Sequence record: PP989838.1
Strand: one strand, 5' to 3'
Length of the DNA stretch: 64,000 nt
From: Escherichia phage VTCCBPA_211
A model generated the notes under the pieces. That model was given only the letters and a program-made list of their open reading frames with translations, made no database searches and was not told the DNA's origin. Below are positions 51,442 to 62,468 of this stretch, one piece after another. Made by a program: the position numbers and the translations under genes. Position 1 is the stretch's first letter. Each line of letters starts with the position of its first letter.

Positions 51442-54012
51442 TTACTCAGAAGGCATTTCAACACGAACTGAGATAAAAGCATCACTCGGGATATCAATAG
51501 GATCACCGTCAGAGAAACCTTCTATCTCATTTCTAGCAAAAACCGGAGAGGTTGGATGGGTTCTGTGATAGGTTTTAACTAAAATAGAACCATCTTCTTT
51601 AATCCCATAATCCAGCCAAACCCTAGGTTGTTTGTTGCGATCAGTAGGAATTTCAAAGCCGCCGTCGATGCCTCCCCATTTTGCATCTGCGTTTAAGCCA
51701 AGGCAGCCGGTAATCAAGTACTCACCAACACCTTGCCGAATGACATTAACCCCCTCAGATTCCTCGTTCGTCTCATATCGACCGTTTGAGTAAATATTAA
51801 CTATCGGAGATGCCGCTTTGATAAATCCGTTTACATCAGTAGTGGTGTTTTTGTTTGTAAGACAATGGACATATTTTATTGTTCCGTCTGCAATCTTTAT
51901 TGCGTAAGATATACGACCATATCCTGAGGCTTCGCCACCAGATCCTGCATAGGACACACCGTGGGCAATCCAGAAGTTAGTATCCTCTGGCTGCATATAC
52001 CAGTAGCAGTTAAACATATCTAAAGTAAACAGGCCATTCCCGGAGGCATGTTGGACACGATCACCAGCACCACCTACGCCTGAATTTGCTGGAGTGTTAC
52101 TTAGCGCTCCAATATTGAACCTTGCACCAGCAGCATCTCCAGCCCCTGTCCCACCATTAGCAACAGGTACATTATCCAGAGTAGAAACACTTCCCAACCC
52201 TAAATTAGATCGGGCACTAGCAGTATTATTCGCTCCAGTACCACCATTGGCAATTGGTATGATATCTAGAGTAGCTGTTGGACCTAAACCAAGGTTAGCA
52301 AGTGCCTCACTGGCTGTAGATGCTCCAGTACCACCCGCTTCTATAGATACTGGATTAGGTGTCCAGCTCTCAGAGGAGAGATCACTTCTCTCTTGTACAA
52401 TAAAGTACCCATCATCCCTTAATACAATCCTGTTTAACAGGTTCGGGGAGAAGATAAATGCATGATTGTTTTGACTGGTAAATGGGTTTATTTTTAAAAC
52501 ATCACGAATCCCATCTACGGTTGTAGATCCAGTCCCTCCTTGAGAGATGGATAACGGCGTTGTGAGTCCAGATAAAGATGTAATGTCAGAGTTTGCACCA
52601 GAAGCGGCAGCACCTAAGATAGATCTGGAGATGTTTACGTTTCCTGTAATCTCATCAGGAGCTTGATTGTTTACAGTAACAACATAAGGTTTCTGAGCTT
52701 GTACAGACCCATTGTACTGAGAGTCTTTGTCAGAATCTGGTGCTCTTATCGCCTCCCCTCCAGTCCAATCAGGAAGTCGAATGTTGATAAAATTAGTAGA
52801 ATCCGCATCGGTAACACCATCTGCTAGCTTACCCCAAGAGAAGTATTGTTTAGCCCCTGCTTGCCATTCAGTTTCAGAAACAACAGGAAGTTGTCCACTG
52901 ACAAGAGATGGACCTAAATCTGAAGCAGATTCTTTAGATACTAGACGACCGTCAGCTGGAAGAACGCCCGGATAGGAGATATTCTTCGTTGGGTCATAAG
53001 GGAACATTACCATCTCACCAAGATATAGAGAAGGGTTTCCTGTTGGAATGGTAATGTCAATGTTACCACTGGAATCCGGAGAGCGAGAGTTAACGGTAAG
53101 GATTCGACCTTCAGTCTTAACAGGGGTTAGTGTTTTGTTAGCAGCAACAGTATAAAATTCATACTTAGTAGCTTCCCAAACTAAAACCTTCTCACCAACT
53201 TGGCGATACTGAGCATCAGCATCAGCTTCTGCTTTTGATTGGTACGTCTTGGTAGTTTTGTCAAGCTTATCGTTAATCTCTTGACGGCTATATTGAGCAA
53301 CGTTCAGAACGTTCCCTAAACCAACTGTTCCCTTGTTGATTGTTAGAGCAACTTCTCCATCAAGAGCTGGACCATCGTTAATAGAAACAGAACGAACAGA
53401 TGGAATTAAATTAGCAATACTCTCTAGAGTGGTTTTGTGGACGGTATTGTCATCTTTGTCAACATAGAAACCTAAATCACCTAGCTCCGGAACACCAGTA
53501 GGTGCTGTATCCAAATCTTTAACAGAACCATCCTTTCCGGGATCACCTTCTGGAATACCTAAAGAGATTACACCAGTGTTCGGATTAAAAGAACCAGTAG
53601 CTTGACTTCCCGGAGGAAGTGTAGTTACATCAACGGACATTCCCAACAGAACATCAAGCTGTTTCTGAACTTCAATAAGTTTCTGATTAATTAAAGCAAC
53701 AGCATTATTAGCATCAGATACTGCTGCGTTGGTCTGAGCGATTAATGCCATTAGGCGAGCATCTTGATCTTTAAAATCCTGCTTAAGATCTTCAATATCC
53801 TGCTTCATCAGAACACCCTGCTGATACAGACGTTCTACTTCAGCGATCAAGTCATCAATTGTACCAAACTTAGACTCTGCTAGCAGTGCCCAATATTTGG
53901 AGTCAGCTGCGTATTCTGCTGCTTGCTTATAAGCTCCGATAGAGCCTTCCGTAGCACCAAACTGCCCAACGTTATTCACTGCATCAGGTGCTTGGTTATT
54001 ATAAACGATCAT
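51442..54012 (-). CDS. tail fibre protein with phage fibre repeats
   Basis: N-terminal coiled coil; four copies of a GGTGA...A..NLGLG repeat. Confidence 0.65.
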   Translation of the reverse strand: MIVYNNQAPDAVNNVGQFGATEGSIGAYKQAAEYAADSKYWALLAESKFGTIDDLIAEVERLYQQGVLMKQDIEDLKQDFKDQDARLMALIAQTNAAVSDANNAVALINQKLIEVQKQLDVLLGMSVDVTTLPPGSQATGSFNPNTGVISLGIPEGDPGKDGSVKDLDTAPTGVPELGDLGFYVDKDDNTVHKTTLESIANLIPSVRSVSINDGPALDGEVALTINKGTVGLGNVLNVAQYSRQEINDKLDKTTKTYQSKAEADADAQYRQVGEKVLVWEATKYEFYTVAANKTLTPVKTEGRILTVNSRSPDSSGNIDITIPTGNPSLYLGEMVMFPYDPTKNISYPGVLPADGRLVSKESASDLGPSLVSGQLPVVSETEWQAGAKQYFSWGKLADGVTDADSTNFINIRLPDWTGGEAIRAPDSDKDSQYNGSVQAQKPYVVTVNNQAPDEITGNVNISRSILGAAASGANSDITSLSGLTTPLSISQGGTGSTTVDGIRDVLKINPFTSQNNHAFIFSPNLLNRIVLRDDGYFIVQERSDLSSESWTPNPVSIEAGGTGASTASEALANLGLGPTATLDIIPIANGGTGANNTASARSNLGLGSVSTLDNVPVANGGTGAGDAAGARFNIGALSNTPANSGVGGAGDRVQHASGNGLFTLDMFNCYWYMQPEDTNFWIAHGVSYAGSGGEASGYGRISYAIKIADGTIKYVHCLTNKNTTTDVNGFIKAASPIVNIYSNGRYETNEESEGVNVIRQGVGEYLITGCLGLNADAKWGGIDGGFEIPTDRNKQPRVWLDYGIKEDGSILVKTYHRTHPTSPVFARNEIEGFSDGDPIDIPSDAFISVRVEMPSE

Positions 54013-54021
54013 ATTATCTCC

Positions 54022-54774
54022 TTATACACGAGAAGTACGAATACCATAAATATCAGGCAAGCTGCTCTGAAGACGAGTCATGTTATTCGGAATTGCGATA
54101 GGTGAACCTGAGTACTCTTGTTTCTTATTCTGCTCTACCATTTCATCAAGGATAGCTTTTCCTAATGCTGACCATTTCTGGACTCCGTTATCATCTTGAA
54201 CAAACAAGCAAGCATGACGTAGAGTGAAATACAGAAGAAGTTCTGGTGCAATAGTAAGGATAGCACTGGTATCTGTATCTTCGTGGAATTCCGGTGGGTC
54301 TGCATAATAACTAAGAATTACTGAGTTTTCTGCTGGAATCAAAGGGCTTCCATCATCAGGGTAGTGCGGAGTATCTGCTTCGATGCTAGGGTAGAAAATG
54401 AAACGACTACCGAAACGAGCAAAGTTAACAGGTTGGTTATTCCAGTGAGATGGGTTAATTGTTCCATGCTGTCTACGATAGCTAATCTCTTCAGGAGAGG
54501 TTACTTGGAAGATTGTACCATCTTTGGCTCTCATCATCCATTGAGCTTCTAAGTAATCAGGAGGAATATAAGCCACTCCATCTTTGATATCTAAATACAC
54601 TTCTTTTTCCAGAGGAGGGATACGTAAGTTACGATAAATCTCTTTCTCTGCAAAGTTAATAAAGTTTGGAATTTGATTAACAAATTCGTCATCGTCCCTA
54701 TCTGCCCAGAGGGCCACGGCCTTCTTTAGCCACCCATAGGTATTGATGGGGTATTGAACATCTGGCATTGCCAT
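54022..54774 (-). CDS. virion structural protein (250 aa)
   Basis: First gene after a terminator plus TAATGTATA motif; ACAAGGAGGA SD. Confidence 0.4.
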   Translation of the reverse strand: MAMPDVQYPINTYGWLKKAVALWADRDDDEFVNQIPNFINFAEKEIYRNLRIPPLEKEVYLDIKDGVAYIPPDYLEAQWMMRAKDGTIFQVTSPEEISYRRQHGTINPSHWNNQPVNFARFGSRFIFYPSIEADTPHYPDDGSPLIPAENSVILSYYADPPEFHEDTDTSAILTIAPELLLYFTLRHACLFVQDDNGVQKWSALGKAILDEMVEQNKKQEYSGSPIAIPNNMTRLQSSLPDIYGIRTSRV

Positions 54775-54816: not shown

Positions 54817-54840
54817 CACACTGGCTTGTATAGGTCTTAA

Positions 54841-54870
54841 AACGAAAAAACCCCGCCCGAAGGCAGGGTC
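54841..54870 (-). terminator. rho-independent terminator after the capsid/Ig-like genes
   Basis: CCCTGCC-TTCG-GGCGGGG hairpin followed by TTTTTTCGTTTT on the minus strand. Confidence 0.65.
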
Positions 54871-54875
54871 TAGTT

Positions 54876-55388
54876 TTAAGCAGGTGTTACACCAGTAAAA
54901 GTGCATGTTGCATTGATAGACGGAGTATCTTTCAAACTTGCTTGAACAGTAACTTCGCCACTTGCAGCAGCATCTAAGGTTAACGCACCAGCGGCGCTTA
55001 CTGTACCAGCTTCTATAGGGGTTACAACAAACGTGTAATCCGCAGCAGCAGAATTAGTTACAGTAAACATGGTAGTGAAATTAGTGGAGGAACCACCAGT
55101 TTTACCCGTAATTGGACCCTTAGCTACAATAGTAGGAGCAGGAGCAACAATTTCAGAAATGGTTGCTGTACCAGAAACACCTTCTAAAGTTGCAGTAATG
55201 GATACATCAGTGGATTGAGACGCACTCGGAGCAGTATACAAACCCGACTGAGTGATAGAACCACCTCCTGTCACTGACCAAGTAAAGCCAGTTGTTTCGG
55301 TAGAACCATCACTTTTCTCCGCGCTTGCAGTGAACTGCCGAGTAGCCCCTGTCTCTAGACTTGCTAAAGACGCAGGGCTAACAGTCAC
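54876..55388 (-). CDS. Ig-like (BIG2-type) capsid decoration domain, probably expressed as a -1 frameshift extension of the major capsid protein
   Basis: BIG2-like sequence; frame is -1 relative to the capsid gene and open for about 30 codons upstream of its GTG; no SD before the GTG. Confidence 0.5.
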   Translation of the reverse strand: MTVSPASLASLETGATRQFTASAEKSDGSTETTGFTWSVTGGGSITQSGLYTAPSASQSTDVSITATLEGVSGTATISEIVAPAPTIVAKGPITGKTGGSSTNFTTMFTVTNSAAADYTFVVTPIEAGTVSAAGALTLDAAASGEVTVQASLKDTPSINATCTFTGVTPA

Positions 55389-55399
55389 ACTGTCTACTG

Positions 55400-56458
55400 T
55401 TACGCCGCCGCCTTTCCCGCAGCAGTGAACAGAACGCCGGAAGCATACGGGTTGCGGTGACGCAGACCAACTTCCATTTCAATCATCCACTTCTCGTAAG
55501 AACCGTCTTTAGCCAGTTCAGTACGTTTCGGAGCACGCAGAACCATCTGGGTCCAGTCAGCGCTACGGAAGAAGTAAACTGCATCAGTAGGCATCCAACG
55601 GTTAACGATGATTTTGTAGCTCTGGCCCAGCGGGTCAGTGATGCTGTTAACTTCGTAGATGAACTGCTTGGTGTTCTCAAAGATACGTTTACGTGAACCC
55701 TGAGTGTTCTCTTGCAGGCCAGCGAAGATTTTAGCATGAGCCGGGTTAATCATGATGATATCTGCTTCAGAACCAGCGGTGTACAGTTGCAGAGTCATAT
55801 CAAAGATATCTGCTTCATCAAAGCCGATGTTAGTAGCCGGGTTAGATGCGTTCTGTGCAACTTTAACAGTGATTGCACCAGTATCCGGGTCAGCAGGACC
55901 GTTCTTGGTTTTGTCAACAACGCCACCAGTCAGACCGCCGTGAGCACACAGGAACTGGAAAGCACCAGTCTTACGAGCTGCATGGGCGTCGTTCTTACCA
56001 ATCTGAGCCGGATCAGCGGCAGAGTTAGTCAGGTACTGATCAGCCAGAACGTCGGTACGAGCCTGACCGGACAGAAGGATTTTCTCGAGGTCACGCTTGA
56101 TCTCTTTACCTTTCTTCTCCAGCTGATACATCAGTTCACGACCACGACCGTAGTTAGCGGTGGTGTTAGCAGTATCAGAAACACGAACAACCTTACGCAG
56201 AATCTGAGTAACGTTAGATTTGATAACAGTCGGTTTCATTTCGCCGTCTTCAGCACGAGAGCCTTCGACGTGTGCGTTATTACCGTCAACGCTTGCCAGT
56301 GCATCGGTCTGCCAGCTAAAGATAGTCTGGTTGATAGACTCTTTACCGGTCATAGATACGAACGGGGTATCCTGAGGGGACAGAACAGAAATCCAGTTAG
56401 CAAAAGAAAGTTTTTTACCATTCTGGTCATACGATACAAATAAAGTTGGATTAGCCAT
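55400..56458 (-). CDS. major capsid protein
   Basis: Position after the scaffold gene, 352 aa, strong SD; contains a G GGA AAG heptamer five codons before the stop. Confidence 0.65.
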   Translation of the reverse strand: MANPTLFVSYDQNGKKLSFANWISVLSPQDTPFVSMTGKESINQTIFSWQTDALASVDGNNAHVEGSRAEDGEMKPTVIKSNVTQILRKVVRVSDTANTTANYGRGRELMYQLEKKGKEIKRDLEKILLSGQARTDVLADQYLTNSAADPAQIGKNDAHAARKTGAFQFLCAHGGLTGGVVDKTKNGPADPDTGAITVKVAQNASNPATNIGFDEADIFDMTLQLYTAGSEADIIMINPAHAKIFAGLQENTQGSRKRIFENTKQFIYEVNSITDPLGQSYKIIVNRWMPTDAVYFFRSADWTQMVLRAPKRTELAKDGSYEKWMIEMEVGLRHRNPYASGVLFTAAGKAAA

Positions 56459-56499: not shown

Positions 56500-57576
56500 T
56501 TAATCTACGAGGAATTTGAATGCGTCTTCGTGACTAACGCGACCCTCTGCGAATGCCTTGGCAACCTTAGCGTTGTCGGGCTTATTGGAAGTGCGAGACT
56601 TTGCAGCATCAGACTTCACAACCTTGCGTGGAGCACCGGGACGTTTGATCTTAGCCATCACCTGTTGCTTACCTTTATCAAATTGGTATGCTTTATGGAG
56701 AGCTAGGAAAATAGACGGACGGTTTTCCTTCAATACTTCTTCTTCAGTAGCACCTAAGTCAATTGCGTATTGCATTAAGTTTTGATATAAGTTTTCATCC
56801 CAATTTGGAATCTCACGTTTCAGAATATTAACACATTCAATACTCTTGGCTTGGAAAGCTTCCTGCTCTTTAGCTGCTGCTTCCTGCTTAATACGGACCT
56901 GAGCCTGTTCAAGCTGGTTACGACGAGCTGTGTACTTCTCTAGGAAACGTTTGTTTTCAACATATGCTTGAGGATCTTCTACTGCAAGCTTGTCCCAATC
57001 AAAACCGTTATAATCTTCAATTACTCGGTCTGCTTCTAAAGACGCTAGTTCTAATACATCCTTCAAACCTACTACACGTTCCTCGAATGCTTCCATATGA
57101 CGCTGAAGAGTTGATTCTCGTTCTGTCATATCAGCACCAGTAAGATAGCCATTAGAAAGTTCTTCAATAGTCATCTCACGTCCATCAGGAAGGGTGATAA
57201 CGGTTTCGTAGTCTACATCAAAGACTTCACCTTCACCGTCAGCAGAATCATCTTCATACTCTGCATCGCTTGAATCTTCTTCCTCTTGTTCTTCTGCTTC
57301 AGAGGATTCATCTTCATCTTCTTCGACTTCGCCTTCCTCTTCACGATCTTCCCAACCATCTTCATCTTCGAACTTAAGCTCATCGCTTTCACCGAGAAGG
57401 TCGGTATCAAAGTCAAATTCGTCACCGGTTTGTTCCGGGAACTCATCGTCAATGTCCACTTCTGGTTCTTGTTCAGATTCTAATCGACCAAGCTCTTCTT
57501 TAAAAGAACCTTTCAGGTCATCCAGTTGGAGGAAAGATTTAAAATCGTTCGGGTCAATATAATTATCTTGTGGCAT
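56500..57576 (-). CDS. scaffolding protein
   Basis: Highly acidic N-terminal region and helical C-terminus; between portal and capsid. Confidence 0.5.
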   Translation of the reverse strand: MPQDNYIDPNDFKSFLQLDDLKGSFKEELGRLESEQEPEVDIDDEFPEQTGDEFDFDTDLLGESDELKFEDEDGWEDREEEGEVEEDEDESSEAEEQEEEDSSDAEYEDDSADGEGEVFDVDYETVITLPDGREMTIEELSNGYLTGADMTERESTLQRHMEAFEERVVGLKDVLELASLEADRVIEDYNGFDWDKLAVEDPQAYVENKRFLEKYTARRNQLEQAQVRIKQEAAAKEQEAFQAKSIECVNILKREIPNWDENLYQNLMQYAIDLGATEEEVLKENRPSIFLALHKAYQFDKGKQQVMAKIKRPGAPRKVVKSDAAKSRTSNKPDNAKVAKAFAEGRVSHEDAFKFLVD

Positions 57577-57812
57577 TATGAAACATCTCCTGCACTGTTG
57601 ATAGCAGCTTTTATGACCTCTTTTAAGCTACCCACCATTTTATACTTTTGATAACAATCTTCGCGTTTCTTATTCTCATGAGGTTCGGTTTGAACTATCT
57701 CTGTCATGAGTCTTTCTTTCAATGCCTCTAATGCTGCGTCAAGACTGCCGTTAAGATTGAGAGCCGCCAAAGCGGCGGCGTGCTCTTTATTGAATTGATG
57801 CCTAATGTTCAT
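57576..57812 (-). CDS. hypothetical protein (78 aa)
   Basis: ORF coupled (TAATG) to the scaffold gene. Confidence 0.35.
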   Translation of the reverse strand: MNIRHQFNKEHAAALAALNLNGSLDAALEALKERLMTEIVQTEPHENKKREDCYQKYKMVGSLKEVIKAAINSAGDVS

Positions 57813-57821
57813 TCGACGTCC

Positions 57822-60065
57822 TTACTTTTTACTTCCAAGACGTTTGCCTGGAATCCGTGAATCTTTGAGAGAAGCTTGTTGCTCTTTCTTAGTTACATTA
57901 GCTTCTTTCTTTTGGAGTTCCAAAGTTTTATCCTGAACACGAGCTTGCTGAACAATCTTCTCTTGGTCTACCTGATGAGACATAACCATCTGCAATTCTT
58001 TCAGTACAGATTCATACTGACGGACCTGCTGTTGCATAAGAGCTAACTTGTGCTTAGCTTGTTCCAGAGTAGCATTGTTATCCTCTTTACGGTTTTCCAG
58101 AGTCATTGCATCTGCTGCATTTTCTTGCTTGAACTGCAACTCTTCCTGACGCAGACTTAATTCATCCGCAGCTTTCTGCTGTTCGAATGTAGTACGTTCA
58201 CGTTGGTCGAATGCATCAGCAATCATCTTCTGAGAAGAAGCCTGTACGTTCTCAACCTGAGCTTTAGTCATCTCGAGCTGGAGGATTTCCATCGGAGAAG
58301 GTTCTGGAGGTTGATACTGTTCCAGAGGCAGAAGGTATTTATGCGTATCTTTAATACCCATCAACTCAAAGATCTGTGCAGTCATGTAACGGTCTTGCTC
58401 CAAACCAAAGAGAGGTGCTAACTGTGCATCCGCTGCAATCAGCTGTTTCAAGCTAATTAGTTTCTGTGCACGTTCTGCTTTCTCGTTAGGAGAGATAGCT
58501 ACAACAACTTGGAGGTTGTGACGAGCTGGTAATTGTTTTGGATTTACCTGAATCATACCACGAGGGGTTTGTACCTCAATAGGAACTTCACCATTTTCTC
58601 TGATAAGGCTGTAAATACCACGCATCAATTCAACCATACCGTTGTGAGCGATGTTACGACATACCATACGGAGACGGTTCTGTGCAGCATTCATCATCAA
58701 GCCTACGGTTGCATAAGCGTTATCATTCTTAAACACATCGGGGTTGATCCCCATACCTAGTTTGGTTACACCGGTACGTGTCTCTTTAAGCTCCTCAGAC
58801 ATGCCTAGAAGGCCGTCAATACCTTGAGGTAGGTTATGGTATGGGAACAGGTCAATAGCGTCCTGACGTTCCATTTCAACCACTCCACCGGGACGGTTAT
58901 CAAGCAGAGAGCGACGGTCGTATGCACCAACAAGAGCTTTGTATCGACCATAGTTAGCATTGTTGACATTATCAATATAACCACGAACTAACGCGGTACG
59001 TAAATCTTGAATATCTTTCGTAATGTCATAGACCGATTGACCATAGAAGGAACCCGGAATCGGATATGGACAGAAGGTTACAAACGGAATGTGAGTTACT
59101 TCTTCAGTGTGAAGGATATGCTCACCAGCTTGGATAACCTGATAGAGTTTAGACTCTTTATTCTTATCTAGAACACCAGTACGAATGTAGTGCTCATAAA
59201 CCCAAACCATAGAAGAGATATCTTCAGTGTCGACACCAATATCAGCATCAATATCCTGACGCCAGTCAGTACGAGACCAAGCAACTGTAGATTGAGTGGT
59301 ATCCATCGTATCTGTCCAGTCGTTGAATGCTTCAATCTCATCTTTAGGGAAGCCCATAGCAACCAGATCTTCTTTAGAACGACGTACACGATGACAGAAG
59401 TATTGTGCATCTGCAAAAGAGGTAGCATGTTCATCAACAAAGATTTGCTCTGAAGGAACATATTCAACTTTCACACGTTTAACAGTTTGTTCGTAAGTAA
59501 CTTTAACATCTACTGTACCATCTTCATTTTCTTCAGTGAAGATTTCCAGATTCTTGAGTCCACCAGCTTCTAATCCCTGAACATATGCAGCCAATGCTTC
59601 CGGTGGTACACCTTCAGCCTCTTCAGTTTGGGTAGAAGTTTGTTCATCCCAATAGTACTTGATAAAAGAGTTACGAGTAACCAGACATTCTTGTGCAGCA
59701 GAAGAGATAATGTTGTATCCCGGATTGTCACGCAGAAGAATTTGGTTAACTAATTTAGTTGCTACATCAGCAGCATCAGAATCCTGTTGGTTGTCAGCTA
59801 CGAAAGTAACTGCTTCATCACCAGAACAGAATACGTTAATAATATCTTGCAATGTACCGTTAACAGATTCCCAAACAGTACGATCTACCCAACTAGAGCT
59901 GCCAGCAGTTACTGGTGCAGGTAAGTTACCATAGAAATATTCCCAAGCTTCACGAGCATAGCCCTTAACAGCCATGTCCACGTAACCTTGAGCGTAATTA
60001 AAACGACGTTGAAGGTCAACACGTAACTCGTCCAACACCTCTTCACTATATTTTTGCTTAGCCAT
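57822..60065 (-). CDS. portal protein
   Basis: 747 aa ORF directly downstream of the terminase; basic C-terminal tail. Confidence 0.6.
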   Translation of the reverse strand: MAKQKYSEEVLDELRVDLQRRFNYAQGYVDMAVKGYAREAWEYFYGNLPAPVTAGSSSWVDRTVWESVNGTLQDIINVFCSGDEAVTFVADNQQDSDAADVATKLVNQILLRDNPGYNIISSAAQECLVTRNSFIKYYWDEQTSTQTEEAEGVPPEALAAYVQGLEAGGLKNLEIFTEENEDGTVDVKVTYEQTVKRVKVEYVPSEQIFVDEHATSFADAQYFCHRVRRSKEDLVAMGFPKDEIEAFNDWTDTMDTTQSTVAWSRTDWRQDIDADIGVDTEDISSMVWVYEHYIRTGVLDKNKESKLYQVIQAGEHILHTEEVTHIPFVTFCPYPIPGSFYGQSVYDITKDIQDLRTALVRGYIDNVNNANYGRYKALVGAYDRRSLLDNRPGGVVEMERQDAIDLFPYHNLPQGIDGLLGMSEELKETRTGVTKLGMGINPDVFKNDNAYATVGLMMNAAQNRLRMVCRNIAHNGMVELMRGIYSLIRENGEVPIEVQTPRGMIQVNPKQLPARHNLQVVVAISPNEKAERAQKLISLKQLIAADAQLAPLFGLEQDRYMTAQIFELMGIKDTHKYLLPLEQYQPPEPSPMEILQLEMTKAQVENVQASSQKMIADAFDQRERTTFEQQKAADELSLRQEELQFKQENAADAMTLENRKEDNNATLEQAKHKLALMQQQVRQYESVLKELQMVMSHQVDQEKIVQQARVQDKTLELQKKEANVTKKEQQASLKDSRIPGKRLGSKK

Positions 60066-61994: not shown

Positions 61995-62468
61995 TTAACT
62001 CTCGTCCGCTTCCTCCCCCTTTTCAGCGTCCTCAGAGTTATCTTCTTCTGGAGGCATAACGTCAACACCAAGTGCTCCAGTCAAGAAGTCCTTGATTTGT
62101 GCATTCAATGATTCTTCGTTGATTACATTCTCTTCCTCAATCTTAACTTCAACAGAGGCCGCCTTAGGATATACCAGATCTGCAACTTTTGATGCAGCCT
62201 TGAATCTAAGATCGGGTGGAATATTAGGATCTTCGTAAATTTGAATTAACACTTCATCAGGAGACAAATGACTTGCAGCAACACGGTCCAACATTAATTG
62301 TGTCAGTTTACCTCTACTACCTCTGGGTCGTCCGAATTTATTTCCCTTTTGAAACTTCCCATTGCTTGGGTTCATACCACGGCTTTCGAGTTCTTCCGTT
62401 ACTCCGGGTAATCTTCCTGTAACCTCAGCTACCTGTGCAGGCGTGAGTTCTCCGTTTTCTCCAAACAT
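61995..62468 (-). CDS. probable terminase small subunit
   Basis: Upstream of terL; basic GNKFGRPRGSRGK motif; acidic C-terminus. Confidence 0.45.
   Translation of the reverse strand: MFGENGELTPAQVAEVTGRLPGVTEELESRGMNPSNGKFQKGNKFGRPRGSRGKLTQLMLDRVAASHLSPDEVLIQIYEDPNIPPDLRFKAASKVADLVYPKAASVEVKIEEENVINEESLNAQIKDFLTGALGVDVMPPEEDNSEDAEKGEEADES

Follow-up and report, generated by a model that had tools for sequence, protein, structure and literature searches.

A -1 frameshift on the slippery heptamer G_GGA_AAG, located close to the 3' end of the major capsid gene of Escherichia phage VTCCBPA_211 (PP989838.1), very probably yields a minor capsid-Ig fusion protein beside the 352-aa capsid protein. 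The window (the whole stretch of DNA analysed here, 64,000 nt) comes from a phiEco32-like (Kuravirus) phage of E. coli. Frameshifts of this kind, in which capsid and Ig-like domains are joined, are already on record in phiEco32, SU10, Paul, YF01 and Privateer, and the finding is not new; the scientific gain is small, a published recoding event re-identified in one more Kuravirus genome. The frameshift reading had been proposed in an earlier note on this DNA, and both the comparative evidence and the published work on close relatives support it. The signal, the two reading frames, the domain content and their conservation are directly observed and are described below.

Genomic context of the capsid gene

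The capsid protein, with the C-terminus ...FTAAGKAAA*, belongs to the SU10/phiEco32 major capsid family according to both Pfam and PDB matches. Pfam PF17236 (SU10_MCP) matches it with an E value of 5e-77, and residues 1-352 align over their full length with the solved structure of the SU10 major head protein (PDB 7Z45, E 7e-233). The nearest database records, EcM-vB1, EcK-vB, EcP-vB and IMEP8, are Kuravirus phages with 97.5% nucleotide identity over 1.9 kb; an exact-match search of the protein collection retrieved neither the capsid, the Ig ORF nor the fusion. The Kuravirus gene order is present in the window, namely portal, small ORF, scaffold, capsid, Ig extension, terminator, adaptor and tail fibre (Table 1). 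The terminator has an annotated counterpart in SU10 and Paul, and the terminator scan identified none between the capsid ORF and the Ig ORF, so that both frames lie on one mRNA.

Table 1. Coordinates of the features discussed, with the strand and the basis of each assignment
Feature	Coordinates	Strand	Basis or remarks
Portal	57822-60065		ORF list; order compared with phiEco32, SU10 and ShigP1 annotations
Small ORF	57576-57812		Between portal and scaffold
Scaffold	56500-57576		Directly before the capsid gene in gene order
Major capsid protein gene, zero frame	55400..56458	minus	352 aa, 38.6 kDa, HK97 fold, SU10_MCP family
Slippery heptamer GGGAAAG, read G_GGA_AAG (X_XXY_YYZ)	55412..55418	minus	Sequence and frame
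Small hairpin CUGCUGC-GGGAAAG-GCGGCGG	55405..55425	minus	Heptamer in loop; -14 kcal/mol, z -2.25
-1 frame extension	54876..55412	minus	178 codons plus stop TAA (54878-54876); starts GGGVTVDSVTV
GTG from which a free 170-aa 'Ig domain protein' is called	55386..55388	minus	Gene-caller start
Predicted long hairpin	55330..55388	minus	Starts 19-23 nt past the heptamer; MFE -35.3 kcal/mol, z -2.3
Ig-like domain 1 (Big_2-like)	55164..55397	minus	Extension residues 6-83; begins 3 codons upstream of the GTG
Ig-like domain 2 (Big_2)	54921..55100	minus	Extension residues 105-164
Intrinsic terminator	54838..54871	minus	Just 3' of the Ig ORF; 10-bp stem, 6 GC pairs, then T run
Adaptor	54022-54774		SU10_adaptor Pfam match
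Tail fibre	51442-54012		ORF list; after the adaptor in gene order

Slippery heptamer and overlapping reading frames

The zero-frame codons round the heptamer read GCG GGA AAG GCG GCG GCG TAA, with the last base of the heptamer three codons ahead of the capsid stop (TAA, 55402-55400). This is a canonical bacterial -1 signal, the X_XXY_YYZ pattern allowing both tRNAs to re-pair: a slip of one base moves the P-site tRNA from GGA to GGG and the A-site tRNA from AAG to AAA. The earlier note gave the sequence, frame and coordinates of the heptamer correctly, whereas its distance of five codons from the stop holds for GGA, the fifth codon before the stop, and not for AAG, the fourth. Going upstream, the -1 frame is first interrupted by a TGA at 55481-55479, 22 codons before the slip point and exactly 30 codons before the GTG (the note had about 30); in the other direction it stays open from the heptamer through the C-terminal Ig-like extension, for 178 codons, to position 54876. 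The two open frames overlap by 79 nt in this phage, and no other canonical heptamer was found within the 150 nt upstream of the capsid stop.

The heptamer is not over-represented in the window, which contains nine copies of GGGAAAG against 6.9 +/- 2.8 expected. Its frequency alone is therefore no evidence, and the argument rests on position, frame and conservation. Among the 49 in-frame X_XXY_YYZ heptamers in window ORFs of at least 120 aa, only the one in the capsid gene leads into more than 40 open codons of the -1 frame, here 178.

The predicted fusion product, encoded by complement(join(54876..55412,55412..56458)), consists of capsid residues 1-348 and the extension and is 527 aa in length (55.7 kDa, compared with 38.6 kDa for the capsid protein). 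Translation reproduces the junction ...TAAGK-GGGVTVDSVTVSPASL... anticipated in the earlier note. The extension, for which the note gave 170 aa, comprises instead about 178-179 residues after Lys348, and the larger capsid species that it foresaw is predicted from the computed masses to be heavier by about 17 kDa rather than about 18 kDa. The first eight residues of the predicted tryptic peptide GGGVTVDSVTVSPASLASLETGATR of the fusion are encoded ahead of the GTG; a free protein started at the GTG would be about 16.6 kDa and begin with fMet/Met-TVSPASL.

The extension matches PHROG 13745, 'Ig domain containing protein' (E 1e-79), and, when scanned as a whole, Pfam Big_2 with 25.6 bits, above the cut-off of 22.8 (E 1.2e-5). 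Scanned alone, the first domain aligns with positions 2-75 of the 79 in the Big_2 profile with an E value of 0.0017, under the gathering score, and has a weak PDB match to the bacterial Ig domain 9KVU. The second weakly matches, in the PDB, the C-terminal Ig-like domain of pb6, the tail tube protein of T5 (E 0.008). With a pLDDT of 49.5, an AlphaFold2 model of the 178-aa extension from a single sequence could not be used to confirm the fold.

Conservation across related phages

We compared the heptamer in Kuravirus, Suseptimavirus and Privateervirus loci. GGGAAAG is invariant and in the same frame in all 14 Kuravirus-like and Privateervirus loci, 13 from Kuravirus or close Kuravirus-like phages and one from Proteus phage P59. 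All three third-codon positions in the heptamer are fixed across these loci despite synonymous options, whereas neighbouring synonymous sites vary, as do the zero-frame tails that follow (KAAA*, KVAA*, KAVAA*, KAGA*, KVAAA* and KLDPQQ*). The -1 ORF, of 169-545 codons and with recognisable Ig-like domains, is open in every locus but SU10, where a 1-nt insertion in the deposited sequence closes the frame after 11 codons, as also reported previously (PMC9965538).

The P59 capsid protein is 57% identical to the one described here, and in P59 the heptamer stands directly before the stop. A shift elsewhere in the 79-nt overlap was considered and rejected: in P59 the stretch over which a change of frame would connect the two shrinks to 19 nt, the heptamer included, and the phage described here offers no other canonical heptamer in the 150 nt before the capsid stop. 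Additionally, SE131, BUCT695 and PKM.Lu.22.1 do not have the heptamer and encode a second capsid paralogue in which SU10_MCP and Big_2 lie in one frame. These in-frame paralogues indicate that the covalent capsid-Ig architecture is a property of the lineage.

Alternative readings of the Ig ORF

The Ig ORF could instead be translated on its own from the GTG at 55388, for example by termination-reinitiation, to give a 170-aa decoration protein bound non-covalently. As the earlier note had observed, this GTG lies 11 nt past the capsid stop and in the -1 frame, a spacing shared by seven of the 13 other heptamer loci; furthermore, a separate 'Ig domain containing protein' is annotated in most database records, and the SU10 cryo-EM paper considers gp10 a possible weakly bound minor capsid protein (PMC9509320). 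However, the GTG has no Shine-Dalgarno (SD) motif ahead of it (neither GGAG, GAGG nor AGGA), again in agreement with the note, and its predicted pairing with the anti-SD, -5.0 kcal/mol against a window median of -6.45, places it among the weaker sites on the late-gene strand. It is also part of the 5' arm of a hairpin with a predicted energy of about -33 to -35 kcal/mol. The codon is missing in six of the 14 heptamer loci, being GTA or ATA in five close relatives (L004, L006, L007, L015 and L016) and absent in P59 (L017), yet all six retain the Ig domain, and the first possible start codon in them is 16-60 codons into that domain. Moreover, the Big_2 match extends upstream of the GTG by three residues, as does the linker G(G/S)G..VTV(D/E)(S/T)(V/I)TV, which is conserved as protein, and a separately translated Ig protein would leave the invariance of the heptamer unexplained. 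Taking these observations together, we consider independent translation from the GTG very improbable, and the codon most likely specifies a Val inside the fusion. Both routes might operate in parallel, the frameshift producing the fusion and low-level reinitiation at the GTG some free Ig protein; the GTG is indeed near the stop, and nothing in the sequence forbids coupled reinitiation, but the same objections apply, which makes this combination unlikely. Given that the GTG is not conserved, any free Ig form would not be a conserved feature of the group.

It is also conceivable that the Ig ORF is a decaying remnant without useful expression and that the heptamer has been kept only for the Ala-Gly-Lys that it contributes to the capsid C-terminus. 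Such a reading could draw on SU10, a viable laboratory phage although it has lost access to the Ig domains (PMC9965538), on whose heads no extra density was seen (PMC9509320). It is hard to reconcile with the fixed third-codon positions in the 14 heptamers, with a -1 ORF held open for 169-545 codons with Ig domains everywhere but in SU10, and with the exchange and enlargement of the extension in Paul and YF01, which points to selection. Decay of the ORF thus appears exceedingly improbable, and we retain the frameshift-derived fusion as the preferred reading.

RNA structures around the slip site

A classical downstream stimulator, that is, a hairpin or pseudoknot about 5-9 nt past the heptamer, was not found, nor was a dnaX-type, SD-like stimulator on the upstream side, where the preceding 30 nt (gtatgcttccggcgttctgttcactgctgc) contain no GGAG, GAGG or AGGA. 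Both a downstream structure and an SD-like stimulator are optional for a -1 frameshift signal.

The small hairpin that holds the heptamer in its loop has a counterpart put forward earlier for SU10 (PMC4281155). It is disrupted in Bas93 (L024) and has no equivalent in P59, and it must be melted while the ribosome decodes the heptamer; for these reasons, we treat its putative role in the frameshift as unproven. The consensus fold of the long hairpin, the nearest stable and conserved one downstream, is kept in 10 Kuravirus sequences, with three pairs changed on both sides, but its covariation score (0.158) is no better than that of slid controls (0.175 in the -1 slid control). We do not count this hairpin as part of the signal, 19-23 nt being too distant for a classical -1 PRF stimulator and the covariation being at control level. 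The structure (-33 to -35 kcal/mol) could nevertheless modulate slippage from an unusual distance, or could occlude internal initiation at the GTG.

Proposed mechanism and possible function

Under the frameshift model, most ribosomes on the capsid gene would end at the TAA and release the 352-aa capsid protein, and a minority would slip one base back on G_GGA_AAG (55418-55412), the Gly and Lys tRNAs pairing anew with GGG and AAA. The slipped ribosomes would then read GGC GGC GGC GTA... in the -1 frame as far as the TAA at 54878-54876. The resulting 527-aa minor capsid protein would combine the capsid body (1-348), a short Gly-rich linker and two tandem Ig-like domains of the Big_2 type. By analogy with the figures for lambda and T3/T7 quoted in PMC9965538, the efficiency of the frameshift is probably a few percent. 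We infer that the fusion co-assembles in the prolate head, of Tend = 4 and Tmid = 20, as a substoichiometric subunit, with the Ig domains outside.

The Ig domains may provide weak, dispensable adhesion to carbohydrate surfaces, and the Big_2 domains displayed through the frameshift may contribute to adherence to mucin or glycans. Adherence of this kind has been reported for Kuravirus ES17, where it was credited solely to the tail fibre, which has no Ig-like fold according to the discussion in that paper (PMC7885116). Taken together, a function of the conserved long hairpin and a role of the Big_2 domains in mucin or glycan adherence form a doubtful, rather unlikely pair of proposals.

Published work and annotation

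The GGGAAAG frameshift of phiEco32 was published in 2008 (PMID 18294652), as cited in PMC4281155, PMC7881722, PMC9965538 and the GenBank note on Paul. For SU10, mass spectrometry in 2014 listed a '9+10' major head protein of 55.4 kDa, represented by 22 peptides, and the same paper states that phiEco32 has the same fusion (PMC4281155). Two capsid bands were subsequently observed in Privateer virions in 2021, the minor form being detected by mass spectrometry (PMC7881722), and slippage on GGGAAAG was described for YF01 and the whole Kuravirus-like group in 2023 (PMC9965538). All three of these papers name GGGAAAG as the slip site.

The presence of the fusion in virions has thus been reported for relatives (PMC4281155, PMC7881722), but the SU10 reports disagree (PMC9509320, PMC9965538). 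The SU10 cryo-EM study found no extra head density and treated gp10 as a separate protein (PMC9509320), and, according to PMC9965538, no extended band was visible on SDS-PAGE in that study. The missing density and band were attributed to the 1-nt insertion that closes the -1 frame (PMC9965538), an explanation in conflict with the 2014 mass spectrometry claim (PMC4281155).

The value of the present result lies in annotation. Most of the related GenBank records examined call a separate 'Ig domain containing protein' from the non-conserved GTG, and among them only Paul and YF01 carry a joined CDS, the note in Paul citing GGGAAAG and the phiEco32 paper. The join given above is the correct annotation for this phage.

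Comparison with known systems

The gene pairs phiEco32 gp11/gp12 and SU10 gp9/gp10, and those of Paul and YF01, are the same as the pair described here, with about 97% nucleotide identity. They share with it the heptamer, the frame, the distance to the stop, the Gly-rich linker, the Big_2 extension and the downstream terminator. In contrast to Paul and YF01, where the extension is about 545 codons, the phage studied here carries the phiEco32 type of extension, with 178 codons and two domains, and its -1 frame, unlike that of the deposited SU10 sequence, is uninterrupted. Nothing essential distinguishes it from the known capsid frameshift systems of Kuravirus. Privateer and P59 likewise combine a capsid protein of the SU10_MCP family, GGGAAAG at its end and an Ig-like -1 extension; in P59, however, the heptamer adjoins the stop and the extension consists of one I-set and one Big_2 domain and has no sequence homology to the extension described here.

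In gene architecture, the 10A/10B pair of T7 and T3 is similar, with a -1 shift near the 3' end of the major capsid gene giving a longer minor subunit. However, the slip site of T7 is G_GUU_UUC rather than G_GGA_AAG, the added segment measures about 53 aa, the efficiency of the frameshift depends in part on distal 3' sequence, and the T7 capsid is icosahedral and belongs to a family other than SU10_MCP (PF17236). Because the capsid families and slip sites differ, T7 10A/10B is an analogue and not a homologue. The comparison with T7 made in the earlier note matches the analogy drawn for Privateer (PMC7881722) and YF01 (PMC9965538), and about 10% slippage has been quoted for T3/T7 (PMC9965538).

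The lambda G/GT frameshift uses the identical heptamer, G_GGA_AAG, in E. coli and needs no downstream structure, in line with the lack of a classical stimulator in the present case. It differs in that it joins tail assembly chaperone genes, and its product is an assembly factor that is not displayed on the virion surface. The slippage quoted for it is about 3.5% (PMC9965538).

Finally, the Grimontviridae relatives SE131, BUCT695 and PKM.Lu.22.1 have, like the phage described here, a plain SU10_MCP capsid protein and a form with C-terminal Big_2 domains, but have obtained them by gene duplication and in-frame fusion, with no heptamer and no recoding. Related prolate podophages thus arrive at a plain and an Ig-tagged subunit through either a frameshift or a duplicated capsid gene, a neat illustration that adds no new principle.

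Slippery site and predicted capsid–Ig fusion product

We found that the slippery heptamer GGGAAAG, which the earlier note had reported in the 3′ end of the Escherichia phage VTCCBPA_211 major capsid gene, is indeed present on the minus strand at 55418-55412. The zero frame of the capsid gene ends in GCG GGA AAG GCG GCG GCG TAA, so that the heptamer is read as G_GGA_AAG, with AAG as the fourth codon before the stop rather than the fifth, as had been counted. The GTG at 55388, from which gene callers start a free 170-aa Ig-like protein, lies in the -1 frame, 11 nt past the capsid stop, as described, and this frame, thought to be open for about 30 codons further back, is open for exactly 30 codons 5′ of the GTG, as far as a TGA (55481-55479). 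Slippage into this frame would yield the predicted junction, ...FTAAGK-GGGVTVDSVTVSPASL..., and a 527-aa fusion of 55.7 kDa, compared with 38.6 kDa for the capsid protein alone. The extension comprises 179 residues after Lys348 instead of the 170 originally given.

The frequency of GGGAAAG in the window is that expected by chance (9 copies observed versus 6.9 ± 2.8 expected). Nevertheless, X_XXY_YYZ heptamers occur in frame 49 times in ORFs of 120 aa or more, and only at the capsid site, 3 codons from the stop, do over 40 open -1 codons (178 codons) follow. Upstream of a large terminase-sized ORF, a 157-aa ORF (61995-62468, minus strand) contains an in-frame A_AAG_GGG 6 codons before its stop, with only 18 open -1 codons, which is probably a chance occurrence.

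Genomic setting and domain content

The 1.9-kb capsid/Ig region matches 125 phage records and shows 97-97.5% nucleotide identity to many Kuravirus Escherichia phages (EcM-vB1, IMEP8, phiEco32, SU10); the late gene order, from portal through tail fibre, is the same as in phiEco32 and SU10. The capsid protein matches SU10_MCP (Pfam, E 5e-77) and can be aligned over its full length with 7Z45, the solved structure of the major head protein of SU10 (E 7e-233). A terminator scan identified no terminator in the interval between the capsid and Ig-like ORFs and a strong intrinsic terminator 3′ of the latter (54871-54848, followed by a T run). In the window (1-64000), the plus-strand early/middle ORFs (~1059 to 33200) converge at ~33250 with the late structural genes, which occupy the minus strand from 63250 down to 33308; ARAGORN found no tRNA genes. 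In phage IME267 (Suseptimavirus; locus L025, 4683-5195), an inserted HNH endonuclease gene, absent from the window and phiEco32, separates the Ig extension from the adaptor gene.

Features of the capsid/Ig locus and of related loci
Feature	Location	Strand	Remarks
Portal	57822-60065	minus	
Small ORF	between portal and scaffold	minus	
Scaffold	56500-57576	minus	
Major capsid	55400-56458	minus	352 aa, 38.6 kDa
Ig-like ORF	54876-55388	minus	
Adaptor	54022-54774	minus	250 aa, SU10_adaptor match (Pfam)
Tail fibre	51442-54012	minus	
Tandem capsid paralogues, SE131	L019 1985-4761		
Tandem capsid paralogues, BUCT695	L021 3001-5281		
Tandem capsid paralogues, PKM.Lu.22.1	L022 3001-6358		
SU10 junction change	L002 2683-2830		just past linker; window 55380-55400

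The whole extension exceeds the Pfam Big_2 gathering score (25.6 versus 22.8 bits), with the match at residues 105-164. When the halves were searched separately, Big_2 was the top match for both, at extension residues 6-83 for the first (E 0.0017) and at residues 14-73 of the second, that is, extension residues 105-164 (E 0.0039). PHROGs likewise identified the extension as "Ig domain containing protein" (E 1e-79), and a PDB sequence search gave weak matches to T5 pb6, in its C-terminal Ig-like domain, and to an Ig domain from bacteria. AlphaFold, run on a single sequence, gave an unusably poor model (pLDDT 49.5).

Frameshifting versus independent initiation

We compared capsid 3′ ends across 26 related loci taken from IMG/VR and GenBank. 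Every one of the 13 Kuravirus or close Kuravirus-like loci has an unchanged GGGAAAG, identically framed and located 3-5 codons before the stop, whereas the flanking synonymous sites and the zero-frame tails (KAAA*, KVAA*, KAVAA*, KAGA*, KVAAA*, KLDPQQ*) vary. The Privateervirus P59, a Proteus phage whose capsid protein is 57% identical, has the same heptamer immediately next to the stop. The stretch permissive for a shift there is only 19 nt, heptamer included, with a -1-frame TAA lying 15 nt upstream on one side and the TAA of the zero frame on the other. The -1 ORFs of the heptamer loci span 169-545 codons and encode Ig-like domains in every case: Big_2 in Paul, as in VTCCBPA_211, but I-set plus Big_2 in P59.

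Initiation at the annotated GTG would instead produce a free Ig-like protein. This GTG has no Shine-Dalgarno motif, as the earlier note had observed; its anti-SD pairing is predicted at -5.0 kcal/mol (window median, -6.45), and most late genes, by contrast, have strong AGGAGG-type sites. The first-domain Big_2 match starts three residues 5′ of the GTG, and the linker preceding it has a conserved amino-acid sequence, G(G/S)G..VTV(D/E)(S/T)(V/I)TV. Furthermore, the GTG is replaced by GTA or ATA in Paul, YF01 and three further relatives (L004, L006, L007) and has no counterpart in P59; in these phages, translation could begin no earlier than 16-60 codons into the Ig domain, and thus independent initiation cannot yield the domain there. 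The sequence data establish the signal and its reading frames, as well as which domains are encoded and how far these features are conserved. The proposed interpretation is supported, and the fusion is very probably produced by -1 slippage at the heptamer.

RNA structure

No SD-like element was found upstream of the heptamer. A small hairpin with the heptamer in its loop, put forward for SU10 in 2014 (PMC4281155), is predicted to form in the window (-14 kcal/mol, z -2.25) but is not kept in Bas93 or P59; a ribosome decoding the slip site must also open it. A long predicted hairpin (55388-55330, or from 55392, minus strand; MFE -35.3 kcal/mol, z -2.3) starts at the GTG, 19-23 nt 3′ of the heptamer, and is retained in ten Kuravirus sequences, with both sides changed at three pairs. 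Given this distance and a covariation score no better than that of slid controls, we treat its role as unproven; by burying the GTG, it argues mildly against internal initiation. The lambda G/GT frameshift uses the same heptamer and works without a stimulator, so that the missing stimulator at the capsid site poses no problem for frameshifting.

SU10 and possible function

The deposited SU10 sequence (KM044272) has the junction ...gacactgtctactgttag... where VTCCBPA_211 has ...gacagtgtgactgttagc..., a substitution plus a 1-nt insertion; as a result, the -1 frame ends after 11 codons and the annotated Ig CDS falls in the capsid zero frame. This agrees with the premature TAG described in the SU10 -1 frame (PMC9965538) and conflicts with the 55.4-kDa "9+10" form listed by mass spectrometry in 2014 (PMC4281155). 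The closed frame accounts for the 715 uniform capsid subunits without extra density seen by cryo-EM (PMC9509320), a study in which SDS-PAGE showed no extended band (as noted in PMC9965538), and shows that the phage can do without the extension in the laboratory.

Slippage is presumably a few percent; given 715 capsid subunits per head, each virion would then carry tens of Ig-tagged subunits, their Ig domains presumably outside the shell. Phage Ig-like domains are generally viewed as accessory and may aid cell-surface attachment (PMC9965538). Kuravirus ES17 (MN508615), with a capsid protein 97.7% identical to that of VTCCBPA_211, binds mucin and heparan sulfate; the passages on binding in the ES17 paper attribute this to the tail fibre, which according to its discussion lacks an Ig-like fold, and do not consider frameshift-encoded capsid Big_2 domains (PMC7885116). 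A contribution of the capsid extension to binding of this type is a possibility.

Comparison with known systems

The more distant SE131, BUCT695, PKM.Lu.22.1 and two IMG/VR contigs (L013, L014), all Grimontviridae-type relatives, lack the heptamer and carry tandem capsid paralogues, two copies each but three in L014. In the three named phages, the downstream paralogue combines SU10_MCP and Big_2 in a single reading frame. Duplication is thus another route to the same pair of plain and Ig-tagged subunits, and the covalent capsid–Ig subunit recurs in this lineage, through recoding in one branch and duplication in another. The third paralogue of L014 (3300033688_000038; 3894-3931) contains an in-frame A_AAA_AAG one codon before the stop; the -1 frame then stays open for 42 codons, perhaps as a short frameshift extension of another kind, perhaps by chance.

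The -1 capsid–Ig frameshift of this phage type is already known, and the practical gain here lies in correcting the annotation to complement(join(54876..55412,55412..56458)). The 2014 work on SU10 named GGGAAAG and stated that phiEco32 has the same fusion (PMC4281155). Joined CDSs are annotated in the GenBank records of Paul and YF01, and the Paul note names the slip site and cites the phiEco32 paper (PMID 18294652). Privateer has the same signal and two capsid bands, the minor form having been detected by mass spectrometry, and the frameshifted product is stated to have been observed in phiEco32 and SU10 (PMC7881722). Slippage has also been described for YF01 "and other group phages" and likened to that of the lambda tail assembly chaperone and of T3/T7 (PMC9965538).
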